Numbered from the stretch's first letter, positions 28,661-62,172 are shown. The stretch is 64,000 nt of DNA from Myxococcota bacterium (GCA_022072125.1 JAJVIH010000054.1:20368-84367); one strand, 5' to 3'. Translations and numbers: made by a program. Notes: generated from the sequence alone by a model not told the origin.

Positions 28661-28676
28661 ATGAAAGGTGGAAGCC

Positions 28677-29657: not shown

Positions 29658-29702
29658 ATTCGCTCCTTGACCAGCGGGTGATGGATCCGCTTAGTTGCAT
29701 GC

Positions 29703-39245: not shown

Positions 39246-41867
39246 TCACCCATCCGCGCATGGGCGCACAATCCGCACCTCGCCGCGGACGCCGTCCAGG
39301 TACAATTCGTCGCCGGTGCGGATCACCCGCGTGGCGTTGTCCACGTTGACCACCGCCGGGATGCCGTATTCACGGGCGACAATGCACGAATGTGACAGCG
39401 GGCCGCCCAGTTCGGTCACCACGCCGGATGCGATCAGGAAAAGCGGCGTCCAACCCACGTCGGTGAAGGGCGTGACGAGGATTTCGCCGTGGCGCAGCAG
39501 GCTGGCGTCCTTCAAATCGCGGATGACCCGCGCGGTCCCGCGCGCCTGGCCGGGAGAGCCGCCCAGGCCGTGCAAGGTCTGCCCCCCTGGCGCCGCCCCG
39601 GTCCATGCGGATTCCTCCACCGGCGCACCGCCGAGGATGAAGCCGGCGGGGGGATCGTCCAGAAGCGACGCGGCGTGAAACTCCATGCGGCGCAGAGCGA
39701 TGCGGGTGCGCACATCCTCGCGCAGGTCTCCGGACAGAAAAGCCTCGATCTCCGGCAGCGTCAGGAAAAACACGGCGTCCGTACGGTCAATCAGCCCGGC
39801 GGCATGCATGCGCGCGCCTGCCTCCAGGAAAATTTTCCGGTACATGCCGATACTTTGCGACACATAGTCGCGCAGTTCCTCGCGCAGCCGCATGGATTGC
39901 CGGGTGAAGCCGAGCGCGGCCTCGAACACCGGACGGAGCGGAGCCGGAATTTCCGATCTCAACCGTTGCGTCGCGGCGCGGCGGGCGGCCCTGCGTCGCT
40001 CCTCGATTTCCACCGGGTTGGCGATTTTGGGCTGTTCCACATGCCGCTGCAGGATGGAGAAAATCACCGCTTCGTTTTCAATCCACCGCGGGGTGGATAG
40101 TTCGGCTTCGCGGGCGGCGCGGAAACCGAAGTCGTTCATGAAGGCGTCCATGCGGCGCAGGAATTTTCTTCCCGCCGGCGTGGTTTCCAACTTGCCGCGG
40201 ACATCGTCAGGATCGCTGGCGGCCAGCACCTCCGCGACCGCGGGCATCTGTTTGGCTAGAATCGCCAGTTCCAGCAGCACCAGGCCCGGCTTGGCGCTTT
40301 GCACGGAGGTGAGCCCGGAGATGACCGCGCTCTGCTCGTCGAGCAGCCCATCGGGAAACGCGCGCTTCAACCCCCAGGTCATGACAATGAAACTGGCGAG
40401 GGCGTTGGAAGCGCATTCCAGCATGATTTCGCCGTTCATATTGAAGACGCTGGTCAGATGCCGCGTGAGCCGCAGCAACTCCTCCGGCTTCATGGCGGAG
40501 AGGTCGAGGCTGAAAAAGCGGTCGCGCTCCGCACGAAAAGTACGCCCCCAGGTTTTGGCGCGGGCGGGATTCCACAATTGCGAAGCCGCCAGCCGGGGCA
40601 GGGTGAACGGCAACCGGAGCAGGAATTGCACGGGCGAGAGTTTTTCGTAGTTGCCGCGCAGTTCCTCCAGGCCGCGTCCGCCCCCGGCGCCCAGCAACAT
40701 TTCCGGGCTGAGAAAGGGCAACTGGGATGCGATGGTCATGAACTCGGTCAGATTCAGGTAGATGCGTCCCCGGAAACTGCCGACCAGCCCGAAATCCTCC
40801 GGGACATCCAGGCCAAGCGCGCCAAACGCCTTTTCAAATCCGCGCCGCGAAAAGGAATGGATGATGGACCAGGTTGCGGGCGTGGCCACGCCGGGCAGCG
40901 CCTCGCCGACGTTGACGTTCGACCACACCGTGCGGGGAAAACGCTTGTGGCCCGCGCCCGCGCTGATGGGGCGGGTTTGCAGCACCTGAAATCCGCCATC
41001 CTGGAGGGCCCATTCGATATCCTGAGGTTCCCCCCAGGCGCTTTCGATTTCGCGGCCCAGCCGCCACAATATGGCGATCTGCGCCGGAGTCAGCGATTCC
41101 GATCGCTGGAAGGCGGATTCCACCGGCTGCTTTTCCAGTCCGCCCTTCTCCGATGGACGGAGCAGCGTGGTTTTCGCGGCGATGGAAGAGCGCAGCACCA
41201 TGCCGCTTTCGCGGTCCACGTACCAGGTGTCCGCGGCGCCGCCGCCAACCACGGTTTCACCCAGCCCCCACGCGGCGTTAATGACCATTTCATCGCCGTG
41301 ACCGCTCACGGGATTGCGGGAGAACACCACACCGGCTGTTTTTGCATCCACCAGATGCTGGATGATCACCGCCATGGAATTGGGGTTCGTCACGCCGCCG
41401 CCGCGCAGGTTGTACAGCATGGCGTTGCGGGAATGGAGCGCCGCCCAGCATTCGCGGATGGCTGGCGATAGCGCCTCTTCGCTGGAGATATTGAGCAGGG
41501 TCAGTTGCATGCCCGCGTGGCTGCCCGCGCTGGCGTCCTCGCCGGTGGCGCTGGACCGCACGGCGCAACGTGGTCCGAAGCGGCTGGTCAAGTCGCGCCA
41601 TGCGGAGAGGATGGCGTGTTCAACGCGCGCAGGGATGGGAGCTTGCAAGATGGACTCGCGGAGCGCCTCGAAAGAGGAAAAATCCGGCTCGAAGCTGGCC
41701 AGGAAGAGTTCGTACGCTGCCGTGGAAATGCAGAATCCGGGGGGAACCGGCGCGCCAAACCGGGTGAGGCGCAGCAGGTTGGACGCCTTTCCGCCAAACC
41801 ATTCCGGGAAGGGCGGCTGGCAGGAATGCAGCGAAATGACCAGCGGGGTTTCGATGTAACGCTTCAT
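39246..41867 (-). CDS. PEP-utilising enzyme family protein (PEP synthase / rifampicin-phosphotransferase-like architecture)
   Basis: Start at ATG 41867 (MKRYIETPL); N-terminal ATP-grasp-like pyruvate phosphate dikinase domain (GGKASNL); C-terminal phospho-histidine mobile domain GGPLSHSCIVAREYGIPAVV. Confidence 0.8.
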   Translation of the reverse strand: MKRYIETPLVISLHSCQPPFPEWFGGKASNLLRLTRFGAPVPPGFCISTAAYELFLASFEPDFSSFEALRESILQAPIPARVEHAILSAWRDLTSRFGPRCAVRSSATGEDASAGSHAGMQLTLLNISSEEALSPAIRECWAALHSRNAMLYNLRGGGVTNPNSMAVIIQHLVDAKTAGVVFSRNPVSGHGDEMVINAAWGLGETVVGGGAADTWYVDRESGMVLRSSIAAKTTLLRPSEKGGLEKQPVESAFQRSESLTPAQIAILWRLGREIESAWGEPQDIEWALQDGGFQVLQTRPISAGAGHKRFPRTVWSNVNVGEALPGVATPATWSIIHSFSRRGFEKAFGALGLDVPEDFGLVGSFRGRIYLNLTEFMTIASQLPFLSPEMLLGAGGGRGLEELRGNYEKLSPVQFLLRLPFTLPRLAASQLWNPARAKTWGRTFRAERDRFFSLDLSAMKPEELLRLTRHLTSVFNMNGEIMLECASNALASFIVMTWGLKRAFPDGLLDEQSAVISGLTSVQSAKPGLVLLELAILAKQMPAVAEVLAASDPDDVRGKLETTPAGRKFLRRMDAFMNDFGFRAAREAELSTPRWIENEAVIFSILQRHVEQPKIANPVEIEERRRAARRAATQRLRSEIPAPLRPVFEAALGFTRQSMRLREELRDYVSQSIGMYRKIFLEAGARMHAAGLIDRTDAVFFLTLPEIEAFLSGDLREDVRTRIALRRMEFHAASLLDDPPAGFILGGAPVEESAWTGAAPGGQTLHGLGGSPGQARGTARVIRDLKDASLLRHGEILVTPFTDVGWTPLFLIASGVVTELGGPLSHSCIVAREYGIPAVVNVDNATRVIRTGDELYLDGVRGEVRIVRPCADG

Positions 41868-42424
41868 CCGGTGAACGCCGCGTCGTGAAAAATCTCCGCC
41901 TGGAAAATCTCCATGTGTGGCAGGCGTCCGCGCAGGTCCTCCAGCCGGAAACCGGCCTTGCGGCATGTGGCTTCAAGAAATTCATGCGGCGTCCAGTTGT
42001 ATTCCGCCGCCACCTGCGGCAGCAGCACGCCGCGCCATCCCATCCACTCGACCATCAGGCCGTCGCGTCCCACCGTGATCTCCCCGATGGAATGGATGGC
42101 TTGGCGCGGACTGAGCACGCTGATCTCGACGCCCAGGCCGCCAAATTCATCCGGAGACAGGGGATCGAAACGCGGGTCGCGGGTGGCGGCCGAGCGGGCC
42201 ATGTCCGCCACGGTCTCCAGCAGGGGACGGGAGTCATCAAAGGTTCCAATGCACCCCCGCAATTCGCCGCGGACATGCAGGGTTACAAAGGCGCCGTGCG
42301 GGGCCAGGGTTTCCGGGGGGGGATGGTCAGGTGGAGAAAACCGCTCTCCACGCGCGGCGGCGCAGGCCGCCTGCCGGGCGGTCTCCAGCAGGAACTGGCG
42401 GCTGGAATCAGAGAGCATGCTCAT
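41864..42424 (-). CDS. AMMECR1-domain protein
   Basis: Start at ATG 42424 (MSMLSD..); conserved AMMECR1 block [19 protein letters not shown]; stop overlaps the downstream start by 4 bp. Confidence 0.8.
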
Positions 42425-42846
42425 CTTTCCGCTGGCGGCCGCCGGCCGGTATCGCGCCAGACAAAATAGTCCGCAAGGATTTGCCCGTGGTCGAAACACA
42501 GGTTGGCCGGTAATTCCTCGCGTTTGAAAAAGCGAACGCCCATGGCGTCGTCGCCCGCGCGCGGCTCCCCCGCGGCCCATCCGGCGAAGACCACGGAGAC
42601 CGTGTGTTTCCGCTTGTCGCGGGCGGGATTGCTGTAGGCGAAGAACTGTTCGAGCAGTTCGGTCTCCAGGCCGGTTTCCTCGCGAATTTCCCGGCGGGCG
42701 GCTTCCGCCACATGTTCGCCGGGCTCCACGAACCCGCCGGGCAACGCCCAGCCCAACGGCTCGAATTTCCGTTCGATGAGCACGATTCCACGCGGGTGCT
42801 CGATGATGACATCCACAGTCAAAAAGGGGCCGGTCCGGGAATCCAT
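42421..42846 (-). CDS. NUDIX hydrolase
   Basis: Start at ATG 42846 (MDSRTG..); Nudix box [24 protein letters not shown]; stop overlaps the AMMECR1 start. Confidence 0.75.
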
Positions 42847-43065: not shown

Positions 43066-44439
43066 GTGAACGTGCAGGTCAATTCTCCATCACCCGCCGT
43101 GCCGGGATCGCAGGATATCCGGCGCATCCATTTCATCTCGCTCGGGTGTCCCAAGAACCGCGTGGATACCGAGGTCATGGTTGGCAAGGCCCTGGGCGCC
43201 GGTTACCAGTTGGAAGACGATCCCGCCGAGAGCGATGTGATTGTGGTCAATACCTGTGGTTTTCTGCAGGCCTCCGCCGAGGAGTCCATTGACACCATCC
43301 TCGACATGGCCGCCTACAAGCAAAGCGGCAGGCTGAAGACCCTGGTCATGGCCGGTTGTCTGGTGCAGCGCCACGCCGACGAATTGGCCGCCGAACTCCC
43401 CGAGGTGGACCATTTCATCGGCACCGGAGAATTTCATCGCCTGACCGATTTGCTGGCGACCAGCGGCTCCCGCCTGGCGGTGGATACGCCCATCTACGTG
43501 CTCGACCACCGCACTCCGCGCACCATCACCACGGCGCACCACGCGGTCTACCTTAAGATCAGCGAAGGTTGCGACAACAAATGCGCCTTCTGTATCATCC
43601 CCACGCTGCGCGGCGCGCAACGCTCGCGGCCGGTCAACGACCTGGTGGCGGAAGCCAAGGCGCTGACGGCGGCCGGAGCAAAGGAGATCACGCTCATCGC
43701 CCAGGATCTGACCGCTTATGGTTATGATCAGGAACCGCGCACCGATCTGGCGGACCTGCTTGACGGGCTCAGCGGCGTCAACGGCCTGCGCTGGATTCGC
43801 CTGCTCTACGCCTACCCGCGCCGTTTCCCCGGACGCATGCTCGACCTGATGCGCGAGCGCGAGAATATCGTTCCCTATCTCGACATGCCTTTGCAGCACA
43901 TCAACGATGAGATGCTGCGCGCCATGCGCCGGGGCCGCGATTCGGCGTTCATCCGCCTCCTCCTCGACACCATCCGCGAAAAGGTTCCGGGAATCACCCT
44001 TCGCACCACCTTTATCGTGGGATTTCCCGGCGAGACAGACGCGCAGTTCGAGGAACTAGTCAAATTCGTCGAGGAATACCAGTTCGAGCGCATGGGCGTG
44101 TTTGGCTATTCGCAAGAGCCCGGGACTCCCGCCGGGGAAATGCCCGGCCAGCTTCCAGCGGAGGTCATTGAAGAGCGCCGCAAGCACCTGATGGGCGTGC
44201 AGCGGAAAATCTCCCGCCGCCAACAGCGCAAGATGCTGGGCCAGGTGATTGATGTGCTGGTGGAAGGCCCCAGCGATGAAACCGAACACTTGCTGGTGGG
44301 GCGGGACAAATCCCGGGCTCCCGAAATTGACGGGCTCGTTTACATCAATGACGGCGCTCCGGCCATTGGCGACATTGTCAAGGTCAAGATCACCGAGGCG
44401 GGCGATTACGATCTTGTCGGACATGTGGTTCCCGGGTGA
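43066..44439 (+). CDS. rimO: ribosomal protein S12 methylthiotransferase RimO
   Basis: MTTase N-terminal Cys (LGCPKN, NTCGF); radical SAM CxxxCxxC in ISEGCDNKCAFCIIP; C-terminal TRAM domain; GTG start at 43066 is approximate. Confidence 0.9.
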   Translation: MNVQVNSPSPAVPGSQDIRRIHFISLGCPKNRVDTEVMVGKALGAGYQLEDDPAESDVIVVNTCGFLQASAEESIDTILDMAAYKQSGRLKTLVMAGCLVQRHADELAAELPEVDHFIGTGEFHRLTDLLATSGSRLAVDTPIYVLDHRTPRTITTAHHAVYLKISEGCDNKCAFCIIPTLRGAQRSRPVNDLVAEAKALTAAGAKEITLIAQDLTAYGYDQEPRTDLADLLDGLSGVNGLRWIRLLYAYPRRFPGRMLDLMRERENIVPYLDMPLQHINDEMLRAMRRGRDSAFIRLLLDTIREKVPGITLRTTFIVGFPGETDAQFEELVKFVEEYQFERMGVFGYSQEPGTPAGEMPGQLPAEVIEERRKHLMGVQRKISRRQQRKMLGQVIDVLVEGPSDETEHLLVGRDKSRAPEIDGLVYINDGAPAIGDIVKVKITEAGDYDLVGHVVPG

Positions 44440-45554
44440 GCGCGGACAAAATTCCATTGCTGGATTTGCCCCGGGAGTTGGACCCCGACCGCGCCGCGAT
44501 TGACGCCGCCATCGCCCGGGTCATCCAGTCCGGGCGGTTTATCCTGGGCCCGGAAGTGGAAGCCTTCGAGACGGAATTCGCCGCGTTTTCCGGCGTTCCA
44601 TACTGCGCCGGATTCAGTTGCGGAACCGCCGCGCTCTACGCCCTGGCGTGGTGCGCGGGCGTGCGGCCGGGCCATGAGGTCATCACCACGCCCATGAGCT
44701 TCGTGGCGACGGCGGAAGCCATTCATTGGTGCGGCGCCAGAACCGTTTTCGCGGATATTGATCTGGAGACCCTCAACCTCAACCTCGATGCGGTGGAACA
44801 GGCCATTACCCCGCGGACCAAGGCGATTGTCCCGGTGCATCTGCACGGCAGAATGGTTGATATGCGGCGGCTCTCCGGCATGACGTCCGGGACTGGCGTG
44901 TTGTTGCTGGAGGACGCAGCCCAAGCCCACGGCGCCAGGGGTCCGGGCGATCAGGGCGGGCCGGGAACCCAGAGCGCCGGCGCCGTGTTTTCATTCTTTC
45001 CCGGGAAAAACCTGGGCGCCCTGGGCGACGCGGGCGCCGTGGTCACCAGCGATGAAGGTCTCGTGCGCGAACTCAGGCTTATTCGCAACCATGGGCGCAG
45101 CGGCAAGTTTGATCACAATGTCATGGGCTGGAATCTCCGCATGGACGCCCTGCAGGCGGCGGTGCTCCGGGTGCGGTTGCCCCGTTTGGCCGCGTGGAAC
45201 CAGCGCCGCCAGGAAATCGCCGCGCGCTACCGGACGTTGCTGGCGGGACATCCGGAAATCCGCCTGCCGCCAGAGGATCCTGGCATGGTCTGGCATCAGT
45301 TCGCGGTGCGGGTTCCCCGCCGCGACGTCGTGCTGGAGGCCATGGCCAGACGGGGCGTGGAATGCGGCGTGCATTATCCGGCGGCGATCCACCGGTTGGG
45401 CGCGTTTTCGTATCTGGGATATGGCGAAGACGCCTTCCCGGATGCGGAGGAAGCCGCGCGCACGGTGCTTTCGCTGCCCATGTTTCCCACGCTGACGGAT
45501 CAGGAAATTGGGCGCGTGTGCGAGGCGCTGACGGAGGTGGTGAGCCATGGATAA
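44436..45554 (+). CDS. DegT/DnrJ/EryC1/StrS-family sugar aminotransferase
   Basis: GTG start overlapping rimO stop (GTGA); PLP-Lys motif SFFPGKNLGALGDAG; typical IPLLDL start. Confidence 0.85.
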   Translation: MSADKIPLLDLPRELDPDRAAIDAAIARVIQSGRFILGPEVEAFETEFAAFSGVPYCAGFSCGTAALYALAWCAGVRPGHEVITTPMSFVATAEAIHWCGARTVFADIDLETLNLNLDAVEQAITPRTKAIVPVHLHGRMVDMRRLSGMTSGTGVLLLEDAAQAHGARGPGDQGGPGTQSAGAVFSFFPGKNLGALGDAGAVVTSDEGLVRELRLIRNHGRSGKFDHNVMGWNLRMDALQAAVLRVRLPRLAAWNQRRQEIAARYRTLLAGHPEIRLPPEDPGMVWHQFAVRVPRRDVVLEAMARRGVECGVHYPAAIHRLGAFSYLGYGEDAFPDAEEAARTVLSLPMFPTLTDQEIGRVCEALTEVVSHG

Positions 45555-46560
45555 TTGGCATGGTCAGGTGGTGCTGATCACCGGCGGAACCGGATTCATC
45601 GGCTCGCATCTGGCGCTGCGCCTGTCCGCTCTGGGCGCGCGCGTGCGCTGTCTGGACACCGGCCGCCGTTCCGCGCTGGATCAACTCACCGGCGGGGCGC
45701 GGCCGGCGAATATCGAGGTCATTCACGGCAGCGTGCTGGATCGCGAGTCGCTGGCGGTGTCGGCCATGGGCGTCCAGACGGTCTTTCATATGGCCGCGTA
45801 CGCGGGGGTCAGCACCTACTTCCGCGAACCGGTGGATACCATGCGCGTCACCCTGCTGGGCATGAACAACCTGATGGAAGTTCTCGCGGACTCCCGCTGG
45901 AAGCCCTCGCGCGTGGTTTTCCTCTCGACCAGCGAGGTGTACGGCGCCCATGCGCTCGATGCGGATGAGGAACAGCCCATGTGCATCGGCCCGGTCTCCA
46001 ACAGCCGTTGGGTGTATTCCGCCGCCAAGGCCGCCGCCGAACACCTGTTGCACGCCCATGGGCGGCAAAACGGCCTGCCGGTGGCGTCCCTGCGGCCATT
46101 CAATATCTATGGACCGGGCCAGCCGGGGGAGGGGGCGGTCGCCAATTTCCTGCGCGCCTGCCGTGAGGGCCGGGACCTGGAAATCACCGGCGATGGTTCG
46201 CCCCGCCGCGCCTGGTGTTATGTGGATGACATGATTCAGGCCTGTTTGCTGGCGGCGGCGGCGCCTGAAGCAGTGGGGAAGGCGTTCAACATCGGCAATC
46301 CGGATGCGTTGATCAGCACCCTCGATCTGGCGAGGCGCATCCAGGCGATTTCCGGCGGCGCAAGCGGCGTTCGCATGGTTCCGCATCCTGGGGGATCGGG
46401 CGGAGAAGTGCTCGATCGCAGCCCCAACATTGGACGCGCCCGCGCGGTGCTGGGTTACGCGCCCGCCGTGGGCCTGGATGAAGGGTTGTCCCTCGCATGG
46501 CGCTGGGAATCGCGGAAAACCGGTCTTACCACGCCGCAGTCAGGGGGTGTCGCGGATTGA
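45547..46560 (+). CDS. NAD-dependent epimerase/dehydratase (extended SDR)
   Basis: Rossmann motif ITGGTGFIGSHL; catalytic YxxxK in YSAAKAAAE; start overlaps upstream gene by 8 bp. Confidence 0.85.
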   Translation: MDNWHGQVVLITGGTGFIGSHLALRLSALGARVRCLDTGRRSALDQLTGGARPANIEVIHGSVLDRESLAVSAMGVQTVFHMAAYAGVSTYFREPVDTMRVTLLGMNNLMEVLADSRWKPSRVVFLSTSEVYGAHALDADEEQPMCIGPVSNSRWVYSAAKAAAEHLLHAHGRQNGLPVASLRPFNIYGPGQPGEGAVANFLRACREGRDLEITGDGSPRRAWCYVDDMIQACLLAAAAPEAVGKAFNIGNPDALISTLDLARRIQAISGGASGVRMVPHPGGSGGEVLDRSPNIGRARAVLGYAPAVGLDEGLSLAWRWESRKTGLTTPQSGGVAD

Positions 46561-46624
46561 CATTTGCGCCGTTCTGGGCGATTTCCCCGCCGCGTCTTCC
46601 GTCACCCCAAACTGAAGGTTCTGA

Positions 46625-47494
46625 ATGAGCAACAAAGCAGAAGTCGCCGTCTCGTACGACGTGGACAACGAGTTTTTCCGGCTCTGGCTCGACGAGAAGA
46701 TGGCCTACACCTGCGGCCTGTTTGAAGGCACGGACAGCTTGGAGCAGGCGCAACTCAACAAGCACGAGTTCCTCGCCAATTATGCGAAGGTGACTCCAGA
46801 GTCGGTGGTGCTGGATATCGGCTGCGGGTGGGGCGCCTGCCTGGATTATCTCGCCACGCGCCGGAACGTCCGCCAGGCCCATGGCATCACCCTCAGCGAG
46901 GCGCAGTTCAAGGAAATCCAGCGCCGCAATGTCCCCAATGTCACGGCGCAGTGCGTGTCCTATCTGGATTACAAGCCTACCCAGAAATTCGATGGGGTGA
47001 TCTCCATCTGCATGATGGAGCATATCGCCACCCCACAGGAAGTGCGCGCGGGTCAACACATCGAAAAGTACCGGGAATACTTCCGGCTGGCCCACTCGTG
47101 GACGCGCCCTGGGGCCCATTTCGCCCTGCAGACCATCCTGCGCAACCGCGTGCCCCGCGACCGCAACGACCTGCGCGACATTGGCTGGGTCACCTACGCC
47201 ATTTTCCCCGGCGGCCTGTCCCTGCGCCTGGAGGACATTTGCGAGGCGGTCAACCCGTACTGGGAAATCATGGAAGTGAAGACCCGCCGCGAACATTACC
47301 GCCGCACCACTTTTGAATGGCGCGAGCGGCTGCGCAAGAACGAAAAACTCATCCGGGAGCGCTGGGGGAATCAGGTGTACGAGGATTACGACCGTTACCT
47401 CTCGACCTGTGTGCGCGGCTTCGAGATGCAGTACCAGTCCCTGGCGCAATGGCAGTTGCGCCGCAACGATGATGTGGATTCTTCCCGTTCCTGA
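46625..47494 (+). CDS. cyclopropane-fatty-acyl-phospholipid synthase family methyltransferase (CFAS / mycolic-acid methyltransferase-like)
   Basis: Family-typical blocks YDVDNEFFRLWLD, LDIGCGWGA, HGITLSEAQ, ISICMMEHI. Confidence 0.85.
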   Translation: MSNKAEVAVSYDVDNEFFRLWLDEKMAYTCGLFEGTDSLEQAQLNKHEFLANYAKVTPESVVLDIGCGWGACLDYLATRRNVRQAHGITLSEAQFKEIQRRNVPNVTAQCVSYLDYKPTQKFDGVISICMMEHIATPQEVRAGQHIEKYREYFRLAHSWTRPGAHFALQTILRNRVPRDRNDLRDIGWVTYAIFPGGLSLRLEDICEAVNPYWEIMEVKTRREHYRRTTFEWRERLRKNEKLIRERWGNQVYEDYDRYLSTCVRGFEMQYQSLAQWQLRRNDDVDSSRS

Positions 47495-47514
47495 TTCCCA
47501 GCGAGGACACCAAC

Positions 47515-47754
47515 ATGAATCACAGCGAATACCTGCAGTTGTTCAAGACCGCCGTTTTCGAGGCTTCCGGCAAGAGCTTCGATTCCGTCTCTCCCGAGAC
47601 CGTGATCGCTGACCTGGGCCTGGACAGCGTGGCGGTGATGGAAGTGGTCGCGGCTCTCGAAGAGAAGCTGAACATCACCATCCCCGATGATCGTCTGGCG
47701 CATATCAACACCATCGGCGATCTGTTCCGCACCCTGGATATGCTGAAGAAATAA
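47515..47754 (+). CDS. acyl carrier protein (stand-alone)
   Basis: 79 aa; phosphopantetheine attachment motif DLGLDSV; GAGGA-like RBS before ATG. Confidence 0.8.
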   Translation: MNHSEYLQLFKTAVFEASGKSFDSVSPETVIADLGLDSVAVMEVVAALEEKLNITIPDDRLAHINTIGDLFRTLDMLKK

Positions 47755-47778
47755 GCCATCCGGCTGCGAAGTCCATGC

Positions 47779-47807
47779 AAAACCGCCCGGATTATCCGGG
47801 CGGTTTT
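47779..47807. terminator. bidirectional rho-independent terminator
   Basis: AAAA-CCGCCCGG-ATTAT-CCGGGCGG-TTTT: 8-bp GC stem, 5-nt loop, A-tract and T-tract on either side; sits between convergent ACP and desaturase genes. Confidence 0.75.
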
Positions 47808-47939
47808 GTCTTCCTGGAGATATCCCCACCGCCTGGCGGCGCCAGGCCATTCTGTCTGTTAGTAACCCTGTTAAGCGCCCGCCCGCGCCATGTTCGTGAG
47901 CAAAAGGGGCGGGAAACGGGTTGTAATGGCGCGGATCGC

Positions 47940-48803
47940 TTATTCCGCGTCCGCTGGAGCGCTGGCCGCCGATCCCGGCGCAAGACCAGATGGCGGAATC
48001 AGCACGCCACCGTCGGTTCTGGCGGGAGATTTGGCGCGGAACAACTCCGTGCGGGTGACTTCCAGCTTCTTCAGCACCGGATACACCACTTCATTGATGA
48101 ACACCGCCCGGTCAATCCCGGCGCTGCGCATCACCTTCACGCGGGATTCATAATCCGGAACAAGGTCATCCGCCGGCATGCGGAAGTTGGTGAAGACCTC
48201 CTTCAGGTCCGCCAGCGTGCCCGCGCGGTCTTCTTCGAGGTAGATGCCCGACATCAGGGTGTAGAAATTGGTGTGGGCGATTTCATCGCGGGAGATGTGG
48301 TGGTAAATCGCCGACAGCAGTTCGTCGCCCGCCGCCTGCGCCGCCTTCTGCTGCTTGAGGTAGATAACGCAGGTCGCCATCTCCTGGAACATGGCGTACA
48401 GGGTCATCTTGCGGCTGGTGTCGAACGGCGCCTTCCACTTCTTGTTGAGAATGGCGTCGGTGAAGGCGTCCATCTGCTCCGGGGTGCGCTGTCCCGTGCG
48501 CATCAGGTACTCGCGCAGCGACAGGGAGTGCTTGGACTCCTCGTATCCCCAGTTGGCGGCGAACCATAGTTGCGCGTAGGAAGACTGCCGCATGACATCC
48601 AGGTGGGCGTGGATATAGTCGGGCAGGTACATCTCCACTCCCGCGAAAGTCTCGGCGCATAAGGCGCGCTCCTCGGACTTCGGGGTCTTTTCCGCCAGTT
48701 CCCAGGGTACATCCTGCGAAATCACCCAGCGGCGCTTGCGCTCGGCCTTGTCGAAGAAATCGCTGAACGCCTCGTAGGCTTTTTCCTTGAATGTTTTGGC
48801 CAT
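47940..48803 (-). CDS. ferritin-like di-iron acyl-ACP desaturase family protein
   Basis: Two ExxH di-iron motifs (GYEESKHSL and SRDEIAHTN) with appropriate spacing; helical protein of 287 aa. Confidence 0.65.
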   Translation of the reverse strand: MAKTFKEKAYEAFSDFFDKAERKRRWVISQDVPWELAEKTPKSEERALCAETFAGVEMYLPDYIHAHLDVMRQSSYAQLWFAANWGYEESKHSLSLREYLMRTGQRTPEQMDAFTDAILNKKWKAPFDTSRKMTLYAMFQEMATCVIYLKQQKAAQAAGDELLSAIYHHISRDEIAHTNFYTLMSGIYLEEDRAGTLADLKEVFTNFRMPADDLVPDYESRVKVMRSAGIDRAVFINEVVYPVLKKLEVTRTELFRAKSPARTDGGVLIPPSGLAPGSAASAPADAE

Positions 48804-48970
48804 GACTCCCTCTTGACTGAAAATCGCGGGAAACCTAATGATTTCCCCTTTTCCCTGACCGTGTGTTACCTCACGGGCGGCCGGACCGCAGCCTTTCCTG
48901 CCCCGTCATTTTGCGTGCGGTTTGACCACCGGCGCCCGGGGAGCGCATCTCCAGAGAATTGTCAGGATTG

Positions 48971-49858
48971 TCAAAAGCGCGCCGCCAGCAATACCAGGCT
49001 GTTGCCCGCGGGACCCCATTCCCTGCCCCATCGGCCGGCGGGAAGCGGCAGACGGCTCACCGCGGCCAATGGCGCGCGGCGGATCAGGCCGCCGTATCCG
49101 GCTGGCGCGCCGGAATACCAGTTCCAGAACCGGAATCCGGCGCTTTCCACCAACCGCTTCAACACCCGCGGACGGAAATGGTTGAGGTGGCTGGGCGGCG
49201 TGAACAGGCCGTATTTCCAGCGGGCGCCGCTGAGTTGGAGGGCGCGCAGTTTGAGCAGATGAAAATTCATGTTGGGGACACGGATCAGGAGGCATCCGCC
49301 CTCGACCAGCAGGCGGTGGGCGGCGTCAAGCGCATCGCGGAAATCCGGCAAATGCTCGAAGCTGTCGAGGAAACACACCGCTTCGTATTCCGATGACTCT
49401 CCAATGTCTTCGATGATTCCCTGAATCGCGCGGACCCCCGGGATGGTTTTGCACCGGGCGATGCAGGCGGCGGAGACATCCACCCCTGTCATGCGGAAAC
49501 CGCGCGCGGCGCCCTGGGTCAGGAATCCGCCATGGCCGCACCCAGCGTCGAGGATACGATCGCCAGGCTCAAGCCCGAACTCTTCCAGCAGGTCCAGCGC
49601 CTGCTCAAAAGCCTGGGACTTGGAGCGCCCCCAGGCTTTGGCCTCCTCGTCGCCGCCCCGGAAATAGGACTGGTTGTAGTATTCCGCCAGTTGCTGATCG
49701 TCTGGAACCGGAAAGGTGGTGATGAAGCCGCACGCGGGACAATCCAGGATCTGGTAGCCATCCTCGCGGGTCAGAAAAATGAATGGCCCCGGCCCGCCGC
49801 ATGCGCGGCAGGGCGGGAAAGGACGCGGAACATCCCTCAATGCAATGGCTTGGCTCAC
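48971..49858 (-). CDS. class I SAM-dependent methyltransferase with N-terminal zinc ribbon
   Basis: GTG start at 49858 overlapping flippase stop (GTGA) preferred over ATG 49948, which would overlap the flippase by about 90 bp; CRAC..CPAC ribbon; motif I LDAGCGHGGF. Confidence 0.7.
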   Translation of the reverse strand: MSQAIALRDVPRPFPPCRACGGPGPFIFLTREDGYQILDCPACGFITTFPVPDDQQLAEYYNQSYFRGGDEEAKAWGRSKSQAFEQALDLLEEFGLEPGDRILDAGCGHGGFLTQGAARGFRMTGVDVSAACIARCKTIPGVRAIQGIIEDIGESSEYEAVCFLDSFEHLPDFRDALDAAHRLLVEGGCLLIRVPNMNFHLLKLRALQLSGARWKYGLFTPPSHLNHFRPRVLKRLVESAGFRFWNWYSGAPAGYGGLIRRAPLAAVSRLPLPAGRWGREWGPAGNSLVLLAARF

Positions 49859-51300
49859 GTGCTGCTCTTCCTCCGGTTCAGTGCGTACCGGAGCGCCAGC
49901 ATATCCTCGTGCGTGATGATGCGGAAGATCGGCAACGCCAGGGCCCACGACGCGAGACCAGCGAAGGCCAGCGCCAGCGGGTGGACTGCTCCCGCATCAT
50001 GCAACCGCCAACCTGCGAAGGCGATGGCCGCGCCCGCCAACAGACCGGGGAGAACCTGCGCGGCGGCGGCGGATTTGGTCATTCCGCCGGGAAGGACGGA
50101 CCAGAACACCGCTAGCACCACCACCTCGGTGATGGCCGTGCAGGCGGCGACTGCTTCCGGTCCGGCGTACGGGATCAGCGCGGTCTTGAGCAGGATATCC
50201 GCGGCCACGCGCACGATCATGAGAATGCTGGCCAGCCGTTCGCGCTTGAGGGCGACCAGTGTGAAGAGCAGGACATCGTTGATGAACACGAAAGGAACCG
50301 CTACCCCAAACCACGCGAGAAACACCGGCGCGCTGCTCCAGGGACCGCCGAAAAACAGGTCAATCCACCCGCGCGCCCCGGCGATCATCACCACCGCGCC
50401 CGCTACGCCCGGCAACAGCGCCGCCTTCAGCGCCAGGCGCAATGCGCCGGTGATATCCTCTCCGCGCGCGGCCAGGCTGGAGAGAATTGGAAACAACGCG
50501 CCGGTGATAATGAGCGAGATGGCGTATCCGCCTTCAAACAGGCGCGCCGCCATGCCATATTGGCCGATGATCCCATCTGGCGTGTTCATCGCCTTGAGCA
50601 GGATGGGGTCGCTGCGCAGGTAGAACAGCGTGAACATGGTGGTCGCCGCGACGGCGGTGATGTTCCGCCACGAGCGCGGCCAGCGGAACCAGTCGGGCGC
50701 GCGCAGTCCGGGAAAGCGGCCTTGCAGGGAGCGGGCCATCCACAGGGCCCCGGCGGTGTTGGCGATGGCCATGCCGGCGACCGCGTGGGTGGCGGTGCGG
50801 AACAGGAGCAGCCCCGCGGCGCCGCCCGCCAGCATGAGCAGCCGTCCCAGCGTGCGGTTGCGCAGGCCCGAGCGGAAATTCTCCACGCCGCTGTCCGCCG
50901 CGATGACAAACTCGATCAACAGGTTGGCGGCCATGTGCAGGATCATCCACCACGCCAGCACCCGTTCCTCCGCGCCCGCATCCCATGCCGAAATCACCAG
51001 CGCCGCCAGGCAGGATGACCACGCGATCAACCAAAATTTCGCGCCGCTCATCTGCCGCAGCGCCGCCAGCCGCCCGTCTGGATTCGAGGCCAACTGCCTC
51101 ACCAGCAGCGTGTTGGCTCCCGCATCGCCGAGTATGGCGAACATGGCGGCGAATCCCTGGGCGAAGGAAATTTTCCCGAACGCGGCGTCTCCCAGAATGC
51201 GCGTGGTCATCAGCGCCAGCACCAGCGACGCGAGGCGGGCCAATCCCTCCGCGATGGCGCGGAACCACAGGTTGCCGGCGGCGCGCTGGTGAAGGTTCAT
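49855..51300 (-). CDS. polysaccharide/oligosaccharide flippase (MOP/Wzx-like)
   Basis: Start at ATG 51300 (MNLHQRAAGNLWF) directly after the GT4 stop; about 12 predicted TM helices typical of polysaccharide biosynthesis transporters. Confidence 0.7.
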   Translation of the reverse strand: MNLHQRAAGNLWFRAIAEGLARLASLVLALMTTRILGDAAFGKISFAQGFAAMFAILGDAGANTLLVRQLASNPDGRLAALRQMSGAKFWLIAWSSCLAALVISAWDAGAEERVLAWWMILHMAANLLIEFVIAADSGVENFRSGLRNRTLGRLLMLAGGAAGLLLFRTATHAVAGMAIANTAGALWMARSLQGRFPGLRAPDWFRWPRSWRNITAVAATTMFTLFYLRSDPILLKAMNTPDGIIGQYGMAARLFEGGYAISLIITGALFPILSSLAARGEDITGALRLALKAALLPGVAGAVVMIAGARGWIDLFFGGPWSSAPVFLAWFGVAVPFVFINDVLLFTLVALKRERLASILMIVRVAADILLKTALIPYAGPEAVAACTAITEVVVLAVFWSVLPGGMTKSAAAAQVLPGLLAGAAIAFAGWRLHDAGAVHPLALAFAGLASWALALPIFRIITHEDMLALRYALNRRKSST

Positions 51301-52421
51301 TTCGCCAGATCCCGCCAAATCCGCTCCACGCCGTCCGCCATGGCCTGCAGGGAAAAACGCTCTCGTGCAATGACCCGGGCGCTTTCGCCCATGGTCTCGC
51401 GGAGCGCGGGATCCCGGATCAATCGTTCCAGGTGACGGGCGAGTTCTTCCGCACAGCCGGGCCGCGACAGCAGACCCGTCCGTTCATGCGTCACCGCCTC
51501 CGGAACGCCGGCGATCCGGCTGGCCGCCACGGGCAGACCCGCCATCATTGCTTCCAGAATGCTGATCGGCAACCCCTCGCCGCTGACGGATGGGAAGACA
51601 AACACATCCGCGGCGCGCATCAATGCGGGAATATCGTCGCGCCAGCCGGTCAGGCGCACGCGGGTGCGCGCGCCGGGATCGGGCTGTTTGAGCAGTTCCC
51701 GGGATCGGGCCGCGAAGTCATGGCTTCCCCCGGCGATGATCAGCCATGGATCAAGGCCGCGATCATGCAGAAGTTGGAAGGAACGCATCAACACATCATG
51801 CCCTTTCGCGGGGATCAGCTTGCCGGCCGACAGCAGAACCGCCGCGTTCTCCGGAATTCCCAGCGTTGCGCGTATGGACTTGCGCGCGGAGTCCGGAGCG
51901 GGTTGCTCCGGAACTCCGTAGGGAACCACCACGGTTTTCTCCGGAACGCCCGGGACATGGCGGTAGGCGTCGCGCGCGGCCTGGCAGCAGGCGATGACGC
52001 GCGAAGCCCGGTTCAACAGCCGGCGATCCACCCGGTTTTGCCGGGTGAAGACATTGTGCAGCGTCCACACCAGGGGAGTGGAAGGCGGCGTGGCTTCCGC
52101 GGCGTATTTCATGGCGTAGAAGGCGTTGGCGTGGACGATGGCGGGGGCCGTTTCGCGAATGAGTTCGTGGAGCCGTCTCACGCCCTTGCCGGAAACCCAG
52201 GGCAGGTGATTGACGCGGAAGGGCAGGGCGTCAAACTCCAGCGGAATGACTTCCACGCCCTGCGCCCGCGCCCGCTTCTCCATTTCGCCGCCGGGCGGAC
52301 ACGCCAGCACGTGCTTCCAGCGCGGGGGAGGCAGCGCGGCGCACAGGCGCAGCATCGCCATCTGCCCTCCCGAAACCCACGGAAACGGGTCCAGCCACAG
52401 AATCACCGGAGATTGGCTCAC
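51297..52421 (-). CDS. GT4-family glycosyltransferase
   Basis: GT-B C-terminal motif ..VFVFPSVSGEGLPISILEAMMAGLPVAAS..; start overlaps recD2 stop. Confidence 0.85.
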   Translation of the reverse strand: MSQSPVILWLDPFPWVSGGQMAMLRLCAALPPPRWKHVLACPPGGEMEKRARAQGVEVIPLEFDALPFRVNHLPWVSGKGVRRLHELIRETAPAIVHANAFYAMKYAAEATPPSTPLVWTLHNVFTRQNRVDRRLLNRASRVIACCQAARDAYRHVPGVPEKTVVVPYGVPEQPAPDSARKSIRATLGIPENAAVLLSAGKLIPAKGHDVLMRSFQLLHDRGLDPWLIIAGGSHDFAARSRELLKQPDPGARTRVRLTGWRDDIPALMRAADVFVFPSVSGEGLPISILEAMMAGLPVAASRIAGVPEAVTHERTGLLSRPGCAEELARHLERLIRDPALRETMGESARVIARERFSLQAMADGVERIWRDLAK

Positions 52422-54670
52422 GCTTCGCCGTCCCGGTTGTCGCGCAGAGCGCCGCGAATGCGATCCGCCAGGGCGGAATAGCGCTCGCGCACCGCGTTGT
52501 TGCGCACCGCCATGCCGATGGCCTTTTCCTGGCCAATCAGCACCACCAGTTTTTTGCCGCGTGTGATCGCCGTGTACAGCAGGTTGCGCTGTAGCATCAT
52601 GTAGTGCTGCGTGAACAGCGGCGTGATCACGGCGGGGTATTCGCTGCCCTGGCTCTTGTGTACGGTGATGGCGTAAGCCAGCATCAGGTTGCCGGTGTCA
52701 TCCTTGTGATAGCGGGACTCGCGGTCGCCGAAACGCACGATAATCTCCTTCTTCGGCGCGTCCCAGCCCACGATGCGGCCCACGTCGCCGTTGAAGACTT
52801 CGCGGTCGTAATCGTTGCGGATCTGCATCACCTTGTCGCCCAGCCGGAATTCAAATTCCCCGCGCTTCAGCAGGGGATCCCCCGGATTCAGTTCGGCCTG
52901 CAGCACGCGGTTCAGGTTTTCCGCGCCCACGGCGCCCCGGTGCATGGGAACCAGCACCTGCACATCCTCGACGGGATCCAGTCCGAAGCGTTTGGGAATG
53001 CGCTCGCGCACCATCTGCAGAATGGCGGGAACGGCCTCCTCGGGGCTGTTGCGTGGAACGATGAAAAAATCCGATTCCCCGCCCGGCGGCGCCGAAACCG
53101 GAGGTTCGCCCGAGTTCACCCGGTGGGCGTTGACGACGATGTCCGACGAGCGCGCCTGACGGAATATCTCTCGCAACCTCACCACGCTCGCGGCGCCGGA
53201 AGCAATCAGATCCCGCAGGACATTTCCCGCTCCCACGCTGGGGAGTTGATCCACGTCGCCGACAAACACCACGCGCGCATTGGCGGGCAGGGCGCTCAGC
53301 AGCGCATACAACAACTGGATATCAATCATGGATGCTTCGTCCACGATCAACGCCCCGCATGACAGCGGGGAGCCCGCGTTGCGTCCGAACAGCCCCGGCG
53401 AATCGCCCGTGTTGTATTCCAGCAGACGGTGGATGGTCATCGCCTCGTGACCGGCGGATTCCGCCAGCCTGCGCGCCGCCCGGCCGGTGGGAGCGGCGAG
53501 GGCGATGTCCGTCTTGTTGTGTTTCAGGATGCGGACGATCCCGCGCATGATGGTGGTTTTGCCGGTGCCCGGTCCGCCCGTGATCACGGTGATGGGATGG
53601 GTCAGCGCCTCCCGGAGAGCCTCCCGCTGGAGCGTGGTCAACTCAATGTGCGCATCCTCCGCGTAACTGTTGATGGCGGCGTCCAGATCGCCCTGGATGC
53701 GCTCCGCTCCGCGCAGCTTGAGCAGTTCGGCGCAGGCCCCGGTCTCGGCGCGGTGCAGCGAACGCGCGTAAGCGGCTTCCTCGCCGCGGATTTTCTCAAT
53801 CACCACATGGGATTCCCGGCGCAGCGATTCCACCGCGGCTTCGATCAGCCCGGGCTCGACCTGAAGTTCCTGGATTCCGCGTTCAATCCATACGGAAACC
53901 GGCAAGTATACATGTCCTTCGTCGCCGGCGGTTTCAAGCTGGAAATGCATGAACGCGCGTATGCGGCGCGGATGTTTTTCGTCAATCCCCATCGAGCGCG
54001 CGATGCGATCGGCGGTTTTGAAGCCGACCCCGAACACGTCAAACGCCAGCACATAGGGATCTTCCCTGATTTTGTTGACGGTCTGTTCCCGGTAACGGGA
54101 GTAAATGCGGTGCGCGAGTCCGGGCGTGGCGCCGTGCGACATCAGGAATGTCATCACGCGGAGCACGCCCTGCTGCTCCATCAGGGATTCGTGGATGATC
54201 TTCGCCTTGCGATCGCTGATGCCTTCCACCCCGGTCAGCCGCGAAGGTTCGTTGATGATGATGTCCAGGGTGTCCATGCCGAAGGCGGCGACGAGCCGCT
54301 CCGCGTTTTTATCGCCCACGCCATCCACATTCGCGGAGAGAAAGCGGCGTACTCCCTCCAGGCTTTGATGTGACAGCGGCTGCACGGCGTCGGCGCGGAA
54401 CTGCCTGCCGTAGTTCTTGTCCTCGACCCAGCGGCCCTGGCATTCGATGTTCATGCCGGGGTCCAGGCCCGCGAGCACGCCCACCACGGTGACTTCCTCG
54501 CCGCCGGTGATCATACGGACCACCGCGAATCCGCTGGCCGCGTTGGCAAAGACCACCCGCCGGACCTCGCCGCGCAGGGTCTCGGTCTGGTTGGCGTCCT
54601 GGTTCTGGAAAAGTGGTCCGGCGCGTGCGCTCACGGCGCGCAGTGTGCGTTGGAAAATGGTCCCGCGCAA
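52418..54670 (-). CDS. recD2: RecD2-like SF1B DNA helicase
   Basis: N-terminal OB/HhH region; Walker [10 protein letters not shown]; Walker B LIVDEASM; motifs [13 protein letters not shown] and C-terminal [10 protein letters not shown]. Confidence 0.9.
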
Positions 54671-61040: not shown

Positions 61041-62090
61041 TCATGGGCAACGGTTGCCCGGTTTCAGGCAATAGCCGAATTCGCGTCCGCCGCTGGTGCT
61101 TTTGCAGCAGACTTCCCCGGATCCGCAGCAGGTATCCGAGCAGCGGTAGGCCGAGAACGTGCAGGTTAGTCCGCATTTGCCTGCGGAACAGGTGGCGTTG
61201 GAGACGTCCTTCCGTCCTTCCGGACACTTCTTTCCGCAGTCGCCACAGTGTTTCGGGTCGCGGCTGGTGTCCGTGCAGATATCTTCCCCTTCGGCGGATT
61301 TACAGAGTTTTTCCGTGGCCTCGCACTGGATTTTGCACACCCCGCTTTCGCAAACCGCCTCGCCGCCGCTTGCGCCGGCGTCACAGACCTTTCCACAGCC
61401 GCTGCAGTTGTTGGGATCGCTGCGGATATCCACGCAGCCGCCGTTGCAGACGGCGTGGCCAAAGGGGCATTCCGTGACGCATTTGCTATTCAGGCATTTG
61501 GCGGTTCCGCCGCCCGGTTGCTCACAGTAGGCGCCACAGAATCCGCAGTTGCCCGGATCGGTTGTGGTGTCCACGCAGCGGCCTTCGCACATGCTCATGG
61601 TTCCCTTGCACTTCAGGCCGCATCCGCCGGCGTTGCAGACCGCGTCGGCGTTGGGCGCGCCCGGGCATTTGAAGCCGCAGCTTCCGCAGTTCTCCGTATC
61701 GGTTTTCAGGTTGGCGCAGCCGCGCGGACAGGGGGTTTCGCCGCTCCGGCAATCGCCTCCGCCTCCGCCGGAATCCTGCGGTGGGGGAATGTCCGGAGAG
61801 GACAGATCACTTCCGCCGCCGGAGCGATCGGTTACGCCTGCGTCGGGGCATAAACCCTCGATCACGCAAACGCCGTTGCAGAGTTCAAATCCATCCGTGC
61901 AGGAGACGGGTTTTCCGCCCTGGTCGCCCAGGCTGGCGTCGGAGCCGCTGGCGCCGGTCCCGCCGCCGCTGGTGGAGCCGCCCGAGATAAACCCGCCCTT
62001 TTTAACGGCCTCCTCGCCGCCGCAAGCGTCCAGCGCCACCAGCAGGGCGCACAAACCCGTCAGCCGGAGCAGAAGCGATTTTGCAGTCAT
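61041..62090 (-). CDS. Cys-rich repeat lipoprotein (CGxCG-type repeats)
   Basis: Start at ATG 62090 (MTAKSLLLRLTGLCALLVALDAC, lipobox); Gly/Ser linker; about 8 repeats of D..NCGxCGxxC..G.C. Confidence 0.7.
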   Translation of the reverse strand: MTAKSLLLRLTGLCALLVALDACGGEEAVKKGGFISGGSTSGGGTGASGSDASLGDQGGKPVSCTDGFELCNGVCVIEGLCPDAGVTDRSGGGSDLSSPDIPPPQDSGGGGGDCRSGETPCPRGCANLKTDTENCGSCGFKCPGAPNADAVCNAGGCGLKCKGTMSMCEGRCVDTTTDPGNCGFCGAYCEQPGGGTAKCLNSKCVTECPFGHAVCNGGCVDIRSDPNNCSGCGKVCDAGASGGEAVCESGVCKIQCEATEKLCKSAEGEDICTDTSRDPKHCGDCGKKCPEGRKDVSNATCSAGKCGLTCTFSAYRCSDTCCGSGEVCCKSTSGGREFGYCLKPGNRCP

Positions 62091-62172
62091 GACAATCCCC
62101 TGAAATGATCGAGGCGTTCCCACGCGGAGGCCACATCATACTTGTTTTTGTTCAAAGCGCCACCGTCCGCGC

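Follow-up and report, generated by a model that had tools for sequence, protein, structure and literature searches.

A conserved trio for putative acyl-ACP tailoring where two sugar gene strings meet in a Myxococcota genome

Eight genes at positions 44436-52421 of a 64,000-nucleotide stretch of a Myxococcota bacterium genome (GCA_022072125.1 JAJVIH010000054.1:20368-84367; hereafter the window, by which we mean this whole stretch) raise the question of whether they make up a single pathway or have been brought together from separate systems. One string of four genes, on the plus strand, encodes a sugar aminotransferase of the DegT family, an extended short-chain dehydrogenase/reductase (SDR), a methyltransferase of the CMAS family and a stand-alone acyl carrier protein (ACP). 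The other string, on the minus strand, encodes a GT4-family glycosyltransferase, a Wzx-like flippase, a second methyltransferase and a di-iron protein resembling acyl-ACP desaturases (Table 1). A reading of this DNA from its sequence alone (the sequence-only reading) had joined all of these into a lipid-tailoring cluster with mycolate-like chemistry that would make an exported aminoglycolipid. The eight genes and their domains, as it had named them, were all borne out by a listing of open reading frames and by Pfam and NCBIfam scans, and the two gene strings do converge on one two-way terminator, a perfect hairpin. We favor, with confidence only slightly above even, the reading that the locus is composite, with a truncated and rearranged acyl-ACP tailoring cassette lying where two sugar operons meet.

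The trio and its conserved cassette

Homologs of the desaturase-like protein at 45-58% identity formed 608 protein clusters. Among GTDB species representatives we counted 402 places with a relative, and at least 399 metagenome contigs carried one as well. Carriers belonged to the Myxococcota (Myxococcaceae, Archangiaceae, Polyangiaceae, Kofleriaceae and Haliangiales) and to the Actinomycetota (Streptomyces, Nocardia, Amycolatopsis, Dactylosporangium and others). We scored 158 distinct loci, drawn from the best approximately 160 of roughly 800 desaturase loci, by tblastn and iterated hidden Markov model (HMM) searches, taking as the denominator for each feature those loci in which it could be tested; some neighborhoods were also read directly. 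The core of the cassette consisted of four genes running in one direction and tightly spaced, which encode a fatty acyl-AMP ligase (FAAL)-like AMP-ligase, a CMAS methyltransferase, an ACP and the desaturase. The ACP gene stood directly upstream of the desaturase gene, on the same strand and at most 400 bp away, in 129 of 143 loci, and a FAAL-like gene lay upstream within 3.5 kb in 89 of 96. In 82 of 120 loci CMAS lay no more than 1.5 kb upstream, with 11 more carrying it elsewhere within 10 kb. The other loci without a FAAL-like gene, six in number, were all without CMAS too.

Three members of this core are contiguous in the window, at 46625-48803. As the window CMAS was 50-70% identical to the methyltransferase of 116 cassette loci, and the window ACP up to 57% identical to cassette ACPs, we regard the trio, on these sequence grounds, as orthologous to the cassette core and its methyltransferase as the ortholog of the cassette methyltransferase. 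Relative to the cassettes compared (L001-L172), the adjacent orthologous CMAS, ACP and desaturase showed 45-70% identity. Conserved synteny of this trio in related genomes was the property on which the sequence-only reading depended, and we observed it across two phyla.

In its full form, the cassette comprised genes for an SDR, a FAAL-like protein, CMAS, ACP, desaturase, a polyketide synthase (PKS) with the domain order KS-AT-KR-DH-AONS (from ketosynthase, KS, to alpha-oxoamine synthase, AONS) and a phosphopantetheinyl transferase (PPTase); full or KS-AONS cassettes were seen in L172 (2849-14776), L006 (5910-18344), L003 (4835-16045) and L004 (4996-16628). The closest relatives of the window desaturase that had enough flank showed the order SDR-FAAL-CMAS-ACP-desaturase-PKS-AONS-PPTase, with CMAS missing from some. 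In many Myxococcota the core was followed by a PKS of 2200-2400 amino acids, in which KS-AT-KR-DH domains preceded an aminotransferase domain (class I/II, alpha-oxoamine-synthase type) at the C terminus, and such PKS-type cassettes often had an SDR gene upstream and a PPTase gene downstream. Streptomyces cassettes contained a KS-AONS protein together with an SDR and an MMPL transporter, Polyangiaceae cassettes a stand-alone KS close to KR-like and ER-like genes, and Nocardia cassettes an acyl-CoA-oxidase-like gene after the core. Minimal ACP-desaturase pairs with neither a FAAL-like gene nor CMAS were present in L011, L057, L070 and L087 (9720-10780), and L014 also had an ACP-desaturase pair without a FAAL-like gene, which shows that the FAAL-like gene of the cassette need not accompany the desaturase. 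The L087 pair sits among housekeeping genes, such as that for aspartyl-tRNA synthetase. Additionally, contig CAWKDB010000011.1 carried two desaturase paralogs about 18 kb apart (L035 and L040), one in a full cassette and the other by itself, with neither ACP nor CMAS nor a FAAL-like gene in its vicinity.

The cassette looks like an undescribed amino-lipid pathway that resembles sphingoid-base synthesis. No description of it was found in the full-text literature, in a search that left most subscription journals outside its range and brought up only general papers on mycolic acids and CFAS, so that its novelty is unproven. The pairing of a soluble acyl-ACP desaturase with a CMAS enzyme on a dedicated carrier had until now come up chiefly in connection with the mycolic acids of mycobacteria. 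Here it forms a compact, conserved cassette in hundreds of genomes of Myxococcota and Actinomycetota, usually with a FAAL-like loader and often with a PKS-AONS, and from this we predict lipids or amino-lipids, cyclopropane-bearing or methyl-branched, of an unstudied class. Several cultured carriers, among them Streptomyces niveus NRRL 2466, Dactylosporangium roseum NRRL B-16295 and species of Nocardia, make this prediction testable.

The window departs from the cassette in both its gene content and its arrangement. No other locus of the 158 combines CMAS, ACP and desaturase with the lack of a FAAL-like gene, and in no other is the desaturase inverted (convergent) against its ACP. Scans of about 45 window proteins and HMM searches of the 64 kb (at E <= 1e-5 for FAAL-like genes) revealed no AMP-ligase, KS, AONS or acyltransferase, and the KS or PKS-AONS found downstream in the cassette is absent from the window. 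In being flanked by sugar genes, the trio stands alone among the 158 loci; relatives of the GT4 and Wzx-like proteins were found within 10 kb at none of the 157 other desaturase loci (tblastn, E 1e-6; phmmer, E 1e-3). A DegT gene in L016 was considered as a link between DegT and the cassette and was judged unrelated, since about 8 kb separate it from the cassette.

The enzymes of the trio and their putative chemistry

The window CMAS consists of the catalytic domain only, aligning with residues of about 110-375 of the cyclopropane fatty acid synthase CFAS and with residues 10-283 of CmaA1. With no lipid-binding domain at its N terminus, it is of the CmaA type and not of the phospholipid-CFAS type, and CmaA1 is likewise a catalytic-domain-only enzyme (PMC11387697). 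The CmaA enzymes act on ACP-bound meromycolates (PMC11387697, PMC12845086), and the substrate of the window enzyme is presumed to be an acyl-ACP, unlike the phospholipid substrate of CFAS. With the cyclopropane fatty acid synthases (E. coli CFAS and the Sterculia and cotton cyclopropane synthases) it shares the PF02353 domain, the S-adenosylmethionine (SAM)-binding motif, VLDIGCGWG, which aligns with those of CmaA1 and CFAS, and the Cys, Glu, Ile and Tyr of the bicarbonate site. Measured against the reference residues of E. coli CFAS (C139, E239, H266, I268 and Y317), these four are kept as C30, E132, I171 and Y225, and the fifth, the His, is replaced by Gln169 (codon 47129-47131), which stands at the position of E. 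coli His266 and CmaA1 His167. All mycobacterial CMAS enzymes that we aligned have His here, in contrast to the Gln present in 116 of the 116 cassette CMAS proteins examined, and this His-to-Gln change is a signature of the cassette family. The possibility that Gln169 bars cyclopropanation was rejected, because the cotton cyclopropane synthases, which are active, carry the same substitution (PMC3132707). In mycobacteria, enzymes of the CMAS family turn one and the same carbocation into a cyclopropane, a methyl-branched olefin or a hydroxy-methyl group (PMC12845086), and by analogy the product of the window CMAS could be any of these.

The stand-alone ACP bears the serine motif LGLDSV. It scored below the cut-off of every NCBIfam AcpP/ACP model, and it is a dedicated carrier, not the housekeeping AcpP.

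The desaturase-like protein is 100% identical to GMKNLPBB_02814, encoded on an 87-kb contig of a Myxococcota metagenome-assembled genome; an exact look-up of its sequence gave no contig. It matched PF03405 over residues 73-255 only, and the NCBIfam scan returned no matching model. Its sequence matches to DesA2 and to plant desaturases had E values of about 1e-6, and it is 18-25% identical to characterized desaturases. The six di-iron ligands (E57, E89xxH92, E141 and E174xxH177) were invariant in an alignment of 13 diverse homologs. When an AlphaFold model of the protein (mean pLDDT 84.8) was searched with Foldseek, plant acyl-ACP desaturases came out on top (TM 0.69-0.77), followed by DesA2 and then R2lox, and the top 19 matches were all plant acyl-ACP desaturases, with query-normalized TM-scores of 0.64-0.77. 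Its identification as a di-iron protein resembling acyl-ACP desaturases holds on the strength of these six ligands and of the predicted fold, and we place it, as a divergent member, in the superfamily of soluble acyl-ACP desaturases, within a family of about 270 amino acids. Although it shares the fold and the six-ligand di-iron site of the plant soluble stearoyl-ACP desaturases (castor delta-9, ivy delta-4 and Thunbergia delta-6), its chain is shorter by about 70 residues, and its identity to them is 18-20%. An ACP-bound substrate is implied by the gene neighborhood, in which the ACP gene so regularly stands directly upstream.

The term "mycolate-like" in the sequence-only reading stands as far as the enzyme logic is concerned. 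In mycobacteria, DesA1/DesA2 and the CmaA/PcaA/MmaA enzymes act on AcpM-bound chains (PMC12845086), and the window has the same two enzyme superfamilies and a dedicated ACP. However, it does not stand as a statement of membership: no gene for the KasA/B enzymes of fatty acid synthase II (FAS-II), for FadD32 or for Pks13 was found, nor any KS, PKS or AMP-ligase, in the 64-kb window. The desaturase-like protein shares about 25% identity with DesA2 and the window CMAS about 30% with CmaA1, the host is represented by a metagenome-assembled genome of the Myxococcota, and the mycobacterial genes are not set out as a compact FAAL-methyltransferase-ACP-desaturase cassette. Because FAS-II, FadD32 and Pks13 are absent, the identities low and the gene organization different, the locus is not a member of the mycolic acid system, and "mycolate-like" is an analogy.

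From family knowledge and synteny, we infer the following course for the trio. The dedicated ACP would carry a long acyl chain in thioester linkage, the di-iron enzyme would use O2 to introduce a cis double bond into this ACP-bound chain, and at that double bond the SAM-dependent CMAS would then add a methylene or a methyl group, to give a cyclopropane or methyl-branched chain. In almost all other genomes, the adjacent FAAL-like AMP-ligase would load the chain, which would later be passed to a ketosynthase or to a PKS-AONS, the latter yielding an amino-lipid. In the window, an active trio would need an acyl-ACP loader encoded elsewhere, and its product would probably feed ordinary lipid acyltransferases and not the sugar genes.

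Sugar genes and the question of a single pathway

The DegT protein had as its nearest solved structures 2oga (DesV; 290 bits), QdtB (241 bits), WbpE (231 bits) and ArnB (150-180 bits), and its sequence marks it as a full-length sugar aminotransferase closest to the C3-aminotransferases DesV, QdtB and WbpE. The SDR appears to be of the extended, nucleotide-sugar 4-oxidizing type. It carries the motifs GGTGFIGSHL, STSEVYG and YSAAK, as in UDP-glucuronate decarboxylases, and its nearest solved structures were 8vr2 (225 bits), an entry for which a literature search led only to an unrelated paper, and then human UXS1 (about 120 bits), with these motifs aligned. Its STSEVYG and YxxxK motifs are a likeness to nucleotide amino-sugar pathways, in which a UXS/ArnA-type or dehydratase-type SDR is paired with an aminotransferase of the DesV/QdtB/WbpE/ArnB type, and the full-length DegT, the GT4 and the Wzx-like flippase extend the likeness to amino-sugar and Wzx-dependent glycan systems. 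The NCBIfam equivalog cut-offs were unmet for DegT and for all of the sugar genes, and the sugar cannot be named from these models. Two other roles for the SDR fell away: it is not the SDR encoded upstream of FAAL in Kofleriaceae and Haliangiales cassettes (44-66 bits against this cassette type, versus 283-294 bits against sugar-type SDRs), and a thioester reductase that would act with DegT as a transaminase to make a fatty amine is unlikely, given the strong full-length nucleotide-sugar matches and sugar-type motifs.

Homologs of the SDR (45-49% identity) are widespread across phyla, and they adjoin DegT in both of the glycan loci that were read (L169 and L170), which are linked to type IV pili and have no trio. 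In L170 (1-16760), PilB/T/C-like and PilS/R-like genes, pilins and a TMEM260-like protein lie near the SDR-DegT relatives, as does PilM in L169 (243-13112), and both may be pilin-glycosylation loci.

The Methyltransf_23 protein has an N-terminal zinc-ribbon-like CxxC...CxxC motif, seen in its translation, and the true start codon of its gene may lie downstream of 49948; it had only generic class I methyltransferase matches among PHROGs and solved structures, and no relatives in other cassette loci beyond weak cross-matches to CMAS genes. The best NCBIfam matches of the glycosyltransferase were GT4 enzymes of the exopolysaccharide (EPS) type, all below cut-off. A word-based homolog search with the Wzx-like protein returned only the protein itself. 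Scans of about 45 window proteins found no initiating phosphoglycosyltransferase and no Wzy polymerase, which is a difference from Wzx-dependent glycan assembly, although the search was not exhaustive for membrane proteins that are small or divergent. With the trio removed, what remains is plausibly a small glycan gene set of two convergent operons, DegT-SDR and GT4-Wzx-methyltransferase.

Under the composite reading, DegT and the 4-oxidizing SDR would make an amino sugar, and the other operon would contribute its methyltransferase, Wzx-like flippase and GT4. The trio lies right at the point where the sugar operons converge; the most likely history is that a partial cassette was inserted or rearranged at this permissive spot, and we infer that the trio is not coupled to the sugar genes on either side. 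Several points weigh against this reading. CMAS and ACP share a tight co-directional string with DegT and SDR, and the desaturase follows the methyltransferase, Wzx and GT4 genes, so that on both strands the arrangement resembles a co-regulated single pathway. This argument is weakened because the genes for RimO and RecD2 also overlap the strings, by 4 bp each, and with housekeeping genes overlapping both strings, tight spacing in this genome alone implies no shared function. The three intact trio genes argue against simple decay and suggest that they are used in this genome, and a loader or acyltransferase may be encoded elsewhere in it, outside the 64-kb window, which covers part of an 87-kb contig. 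Finally, the chemistry that we attribute to the desaturase and CMAS subfamily is drawn by analogy from distant relatives (18-25% identity for the desaturase).

The alternative closest to the sequence-only reading is that all eight genes form one pathway. An ACP-bound chain would be desaturated, then cyclopropanated or methylated, and joined to the amino sugar made by SDR and DegT; the GT4 and the second methyltransferase would elaborate this product, and the Wzx-like protein would flip it, to give an exported aminoglycolipid. The operon-like layout, with its short gaps and both strings meeting at one terminator, is consistent with this, as are the intact trio genes and the resemblance of DegT to the C3-aminotransferases that create an acyl-accepting amine. 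There is also a precedent for acyl-ACP-dependent N-acylation of amino sugars in lipid A synthesis, where LpxA and LpxD carry out acyl-ACP-dependent acylation. However, neither the cluster nor the window has an acyltransferase gene, the window has no acyl-ACP loader, and no other trio or desaturase locus has relatives of GT4 or Wzx (0 of 157). Wzx-type flippases normally act on polyprenyl-diphosphate-linked glycans, not on glycolipids, and the housekeeping genes that overlap both strings make adjacency weak evidence. We consider a single pathway doubtful. The exported aminoglycolipid, which rests on adjacency in one genome, is unsupported, and the value of the window is as a pointer to the cassette and to a possible rewiring of its module, not as evidence for a new aminoglycolipid.

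As a question of its own, it is also unlikely, though only a little more so, that the trio is a real module with other chemistry, in which the di-iron protein hydroxylates or otherwise oxidizes the chain and CMAS gives a methyl-branched olefin or a hydroxy-methyl product, as MmaA1 and MmaA4 do. The low identity of the desaturase to characterized desaturases (18-25%) and the Gln in place of the bicarbonate-binding His in every cassette CMAS leave room for this, and several outcomes from one carbocation are established for the CMAS family (PMC12845086). The active cotton cyclopropane synthases share the His-to-Gln change, however (PMC3132707), and the nearest folds to the desaturase-like protein are all true desaturases. 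A CMAS-family enzyme requires an olefin substrate, which the neighboring desaturase would supply.

A third possibility, which we think improbable, is a natural rewiring, in which the cassette has exchanged its loader and off-loader for the amino-sugar, GT4 and flippase genes, and the acyl chain ends up on an exported glycoconjugate of the amino sugar by way of an acyltransferase whose gene lies elsewhere. If this were true, a cassette that in Myxococcota and Actinomycetota normally feeds a PKS-AONS, to make cyclopropanated or methyl-branched amino-lipids resembling sphingoid bases, would have been turned to a different end product.

It is more improbable still that the trio has ceased to function and is what remains of a full FAAL-CMAS-ACP-desaturase-PKS cassette, its loader and PKS lost by deletion and inversion, with only the sugar genes functional. 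The unique lack of a FAAL-like gene beside CMAS, ACP and desaturase, the unique inversion of the desaturase and the absence of KS or AONS downstream all speak for a remnant. However, the three frames are full length and have kept every catalytic residue, the ACP serine motif included, which makes a remnant less likely, and their GC content by codon position is typical of real genes in the window (0.81 at third positions for CMAS and desaturase). Furthermore, the ACP-desaturase pairs that occur without a FAAL-like gene elsewhere (L011, L014, L057 and L070) indicate that these enzymes can work with other loaders. Compared with these alternatives, the composite reading, in which an intact but truncated and rearranged cassette lies between two sugar operons, remains the one that we prefer.

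Layout of the locus and neighboring genes

The positions of the cluster genes and of the other window features are collected in Table 1, in which domains were assigned from Pfam bit scores against the gathering cut-off, with the NCBIfam equivalog cut-offs also applied.

Table 1. Features of the cluster and of its surroundings in the window, with the evidence for each
Feature	Position	Strand	Evidence or remark
DegT/DnrJ/EryC1-family pyridoxal phosphate-dependent sugar aminotransferase	44436-45554	+	Pfam PF01041 DegT_DnrJ_EryC1, 355 bits
Extended SDR (NAD epimerase/dehydratase)	45547-46560	+	Pfam Epimerase, 188 bits
CMAS/CFAS-family SAM methyltransferase, 289 amino acids	46625-47494	+	CMAS PF02353, 184 bits (cut-off 27)
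Stand-alone ACP, 79 amino acids	47515-47754	+	PP-binding, 46.7 bits
Bidirectional intrinsic-terminator-like hairpin	47777-47809 (core 47779-47807)	both	AAAACCGCCCGGATTATCCGGGCGGTTTT
Second short GC-rich hairpin	47831-47847		GCCTGGCGGCGCCAGGC
Soluble di-iron acyl-ACP-desaturase-like protein	47940-48803	-	FA_desaturase_2 PF03405, 74 bits (cut-off 22.7)
Class I SAM methyltransferase, N-terminal CxxC...CxxC	48971-49948	-	Methyltransf_23, 84 bits
MOP-superfamily Polysacc_synt (Wzx-like) flippase	49855-51318	-	PF01943, 49.5 bits (cut-off 28.2); weak MurJ match
GT4-family glycosyltransferase	51297-52421	-	Glycos_transf_1, 121 bits, and Glyco_transf_4, 70 bits
RimO	43066-44439		borders the cluster; 4-bp overlap with DegT
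RecD2	52418-54670		borders the other side; 4-bp overlap with GT4
Radical SAM protein, then class V aminotransferase-like protein	28668-30968	+	
906-amino-acid protein	39246-41966	-	PPDK_N ATP-binding domain and C-terminal mobile domain
AMMECR1	41864-42580		directly upstream of the 906-amino-acid protein
Cys-rich protein	61041-62123	-	Stig1-like repeats

The reading frames of the cluster are backed by base composition at each codon position, in a window whose GC content is 63%. Intergenic gaps on the plus strand measure 64 bp between SDR and CMAS and 20 bp between CMAS and ACP. The terminator hairpin has a perfect stem of 14-15 bp, with an A run and a T run on its flanks. Folding gave -27.4 kcal/mol (z-score -7.6) for one strand and -26.0 kcal/mol (z-score -6.0) for the other, and no shuffled sequence out of 200 folded as well. 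The second hairpin lies between this hairpin and the desaturase stop codon.

Urocanase is encoded beyond RecD2. On the other side of the cluster, the C-terminal domain of the 906-amino-acid protein is of the phosphoenolpyruvate-utilizing mobile type, and both this gene and its AMMECR1 neighbor seem unrelated to the cluster. A Cys-rich protein with Stig1-like repeats, like that near the end of the window, is also encoded in L136 (12211-13161, plus strand), just downstream of the cassette KS, and such proteins are probably common secreted proteins of the Myxococcota.

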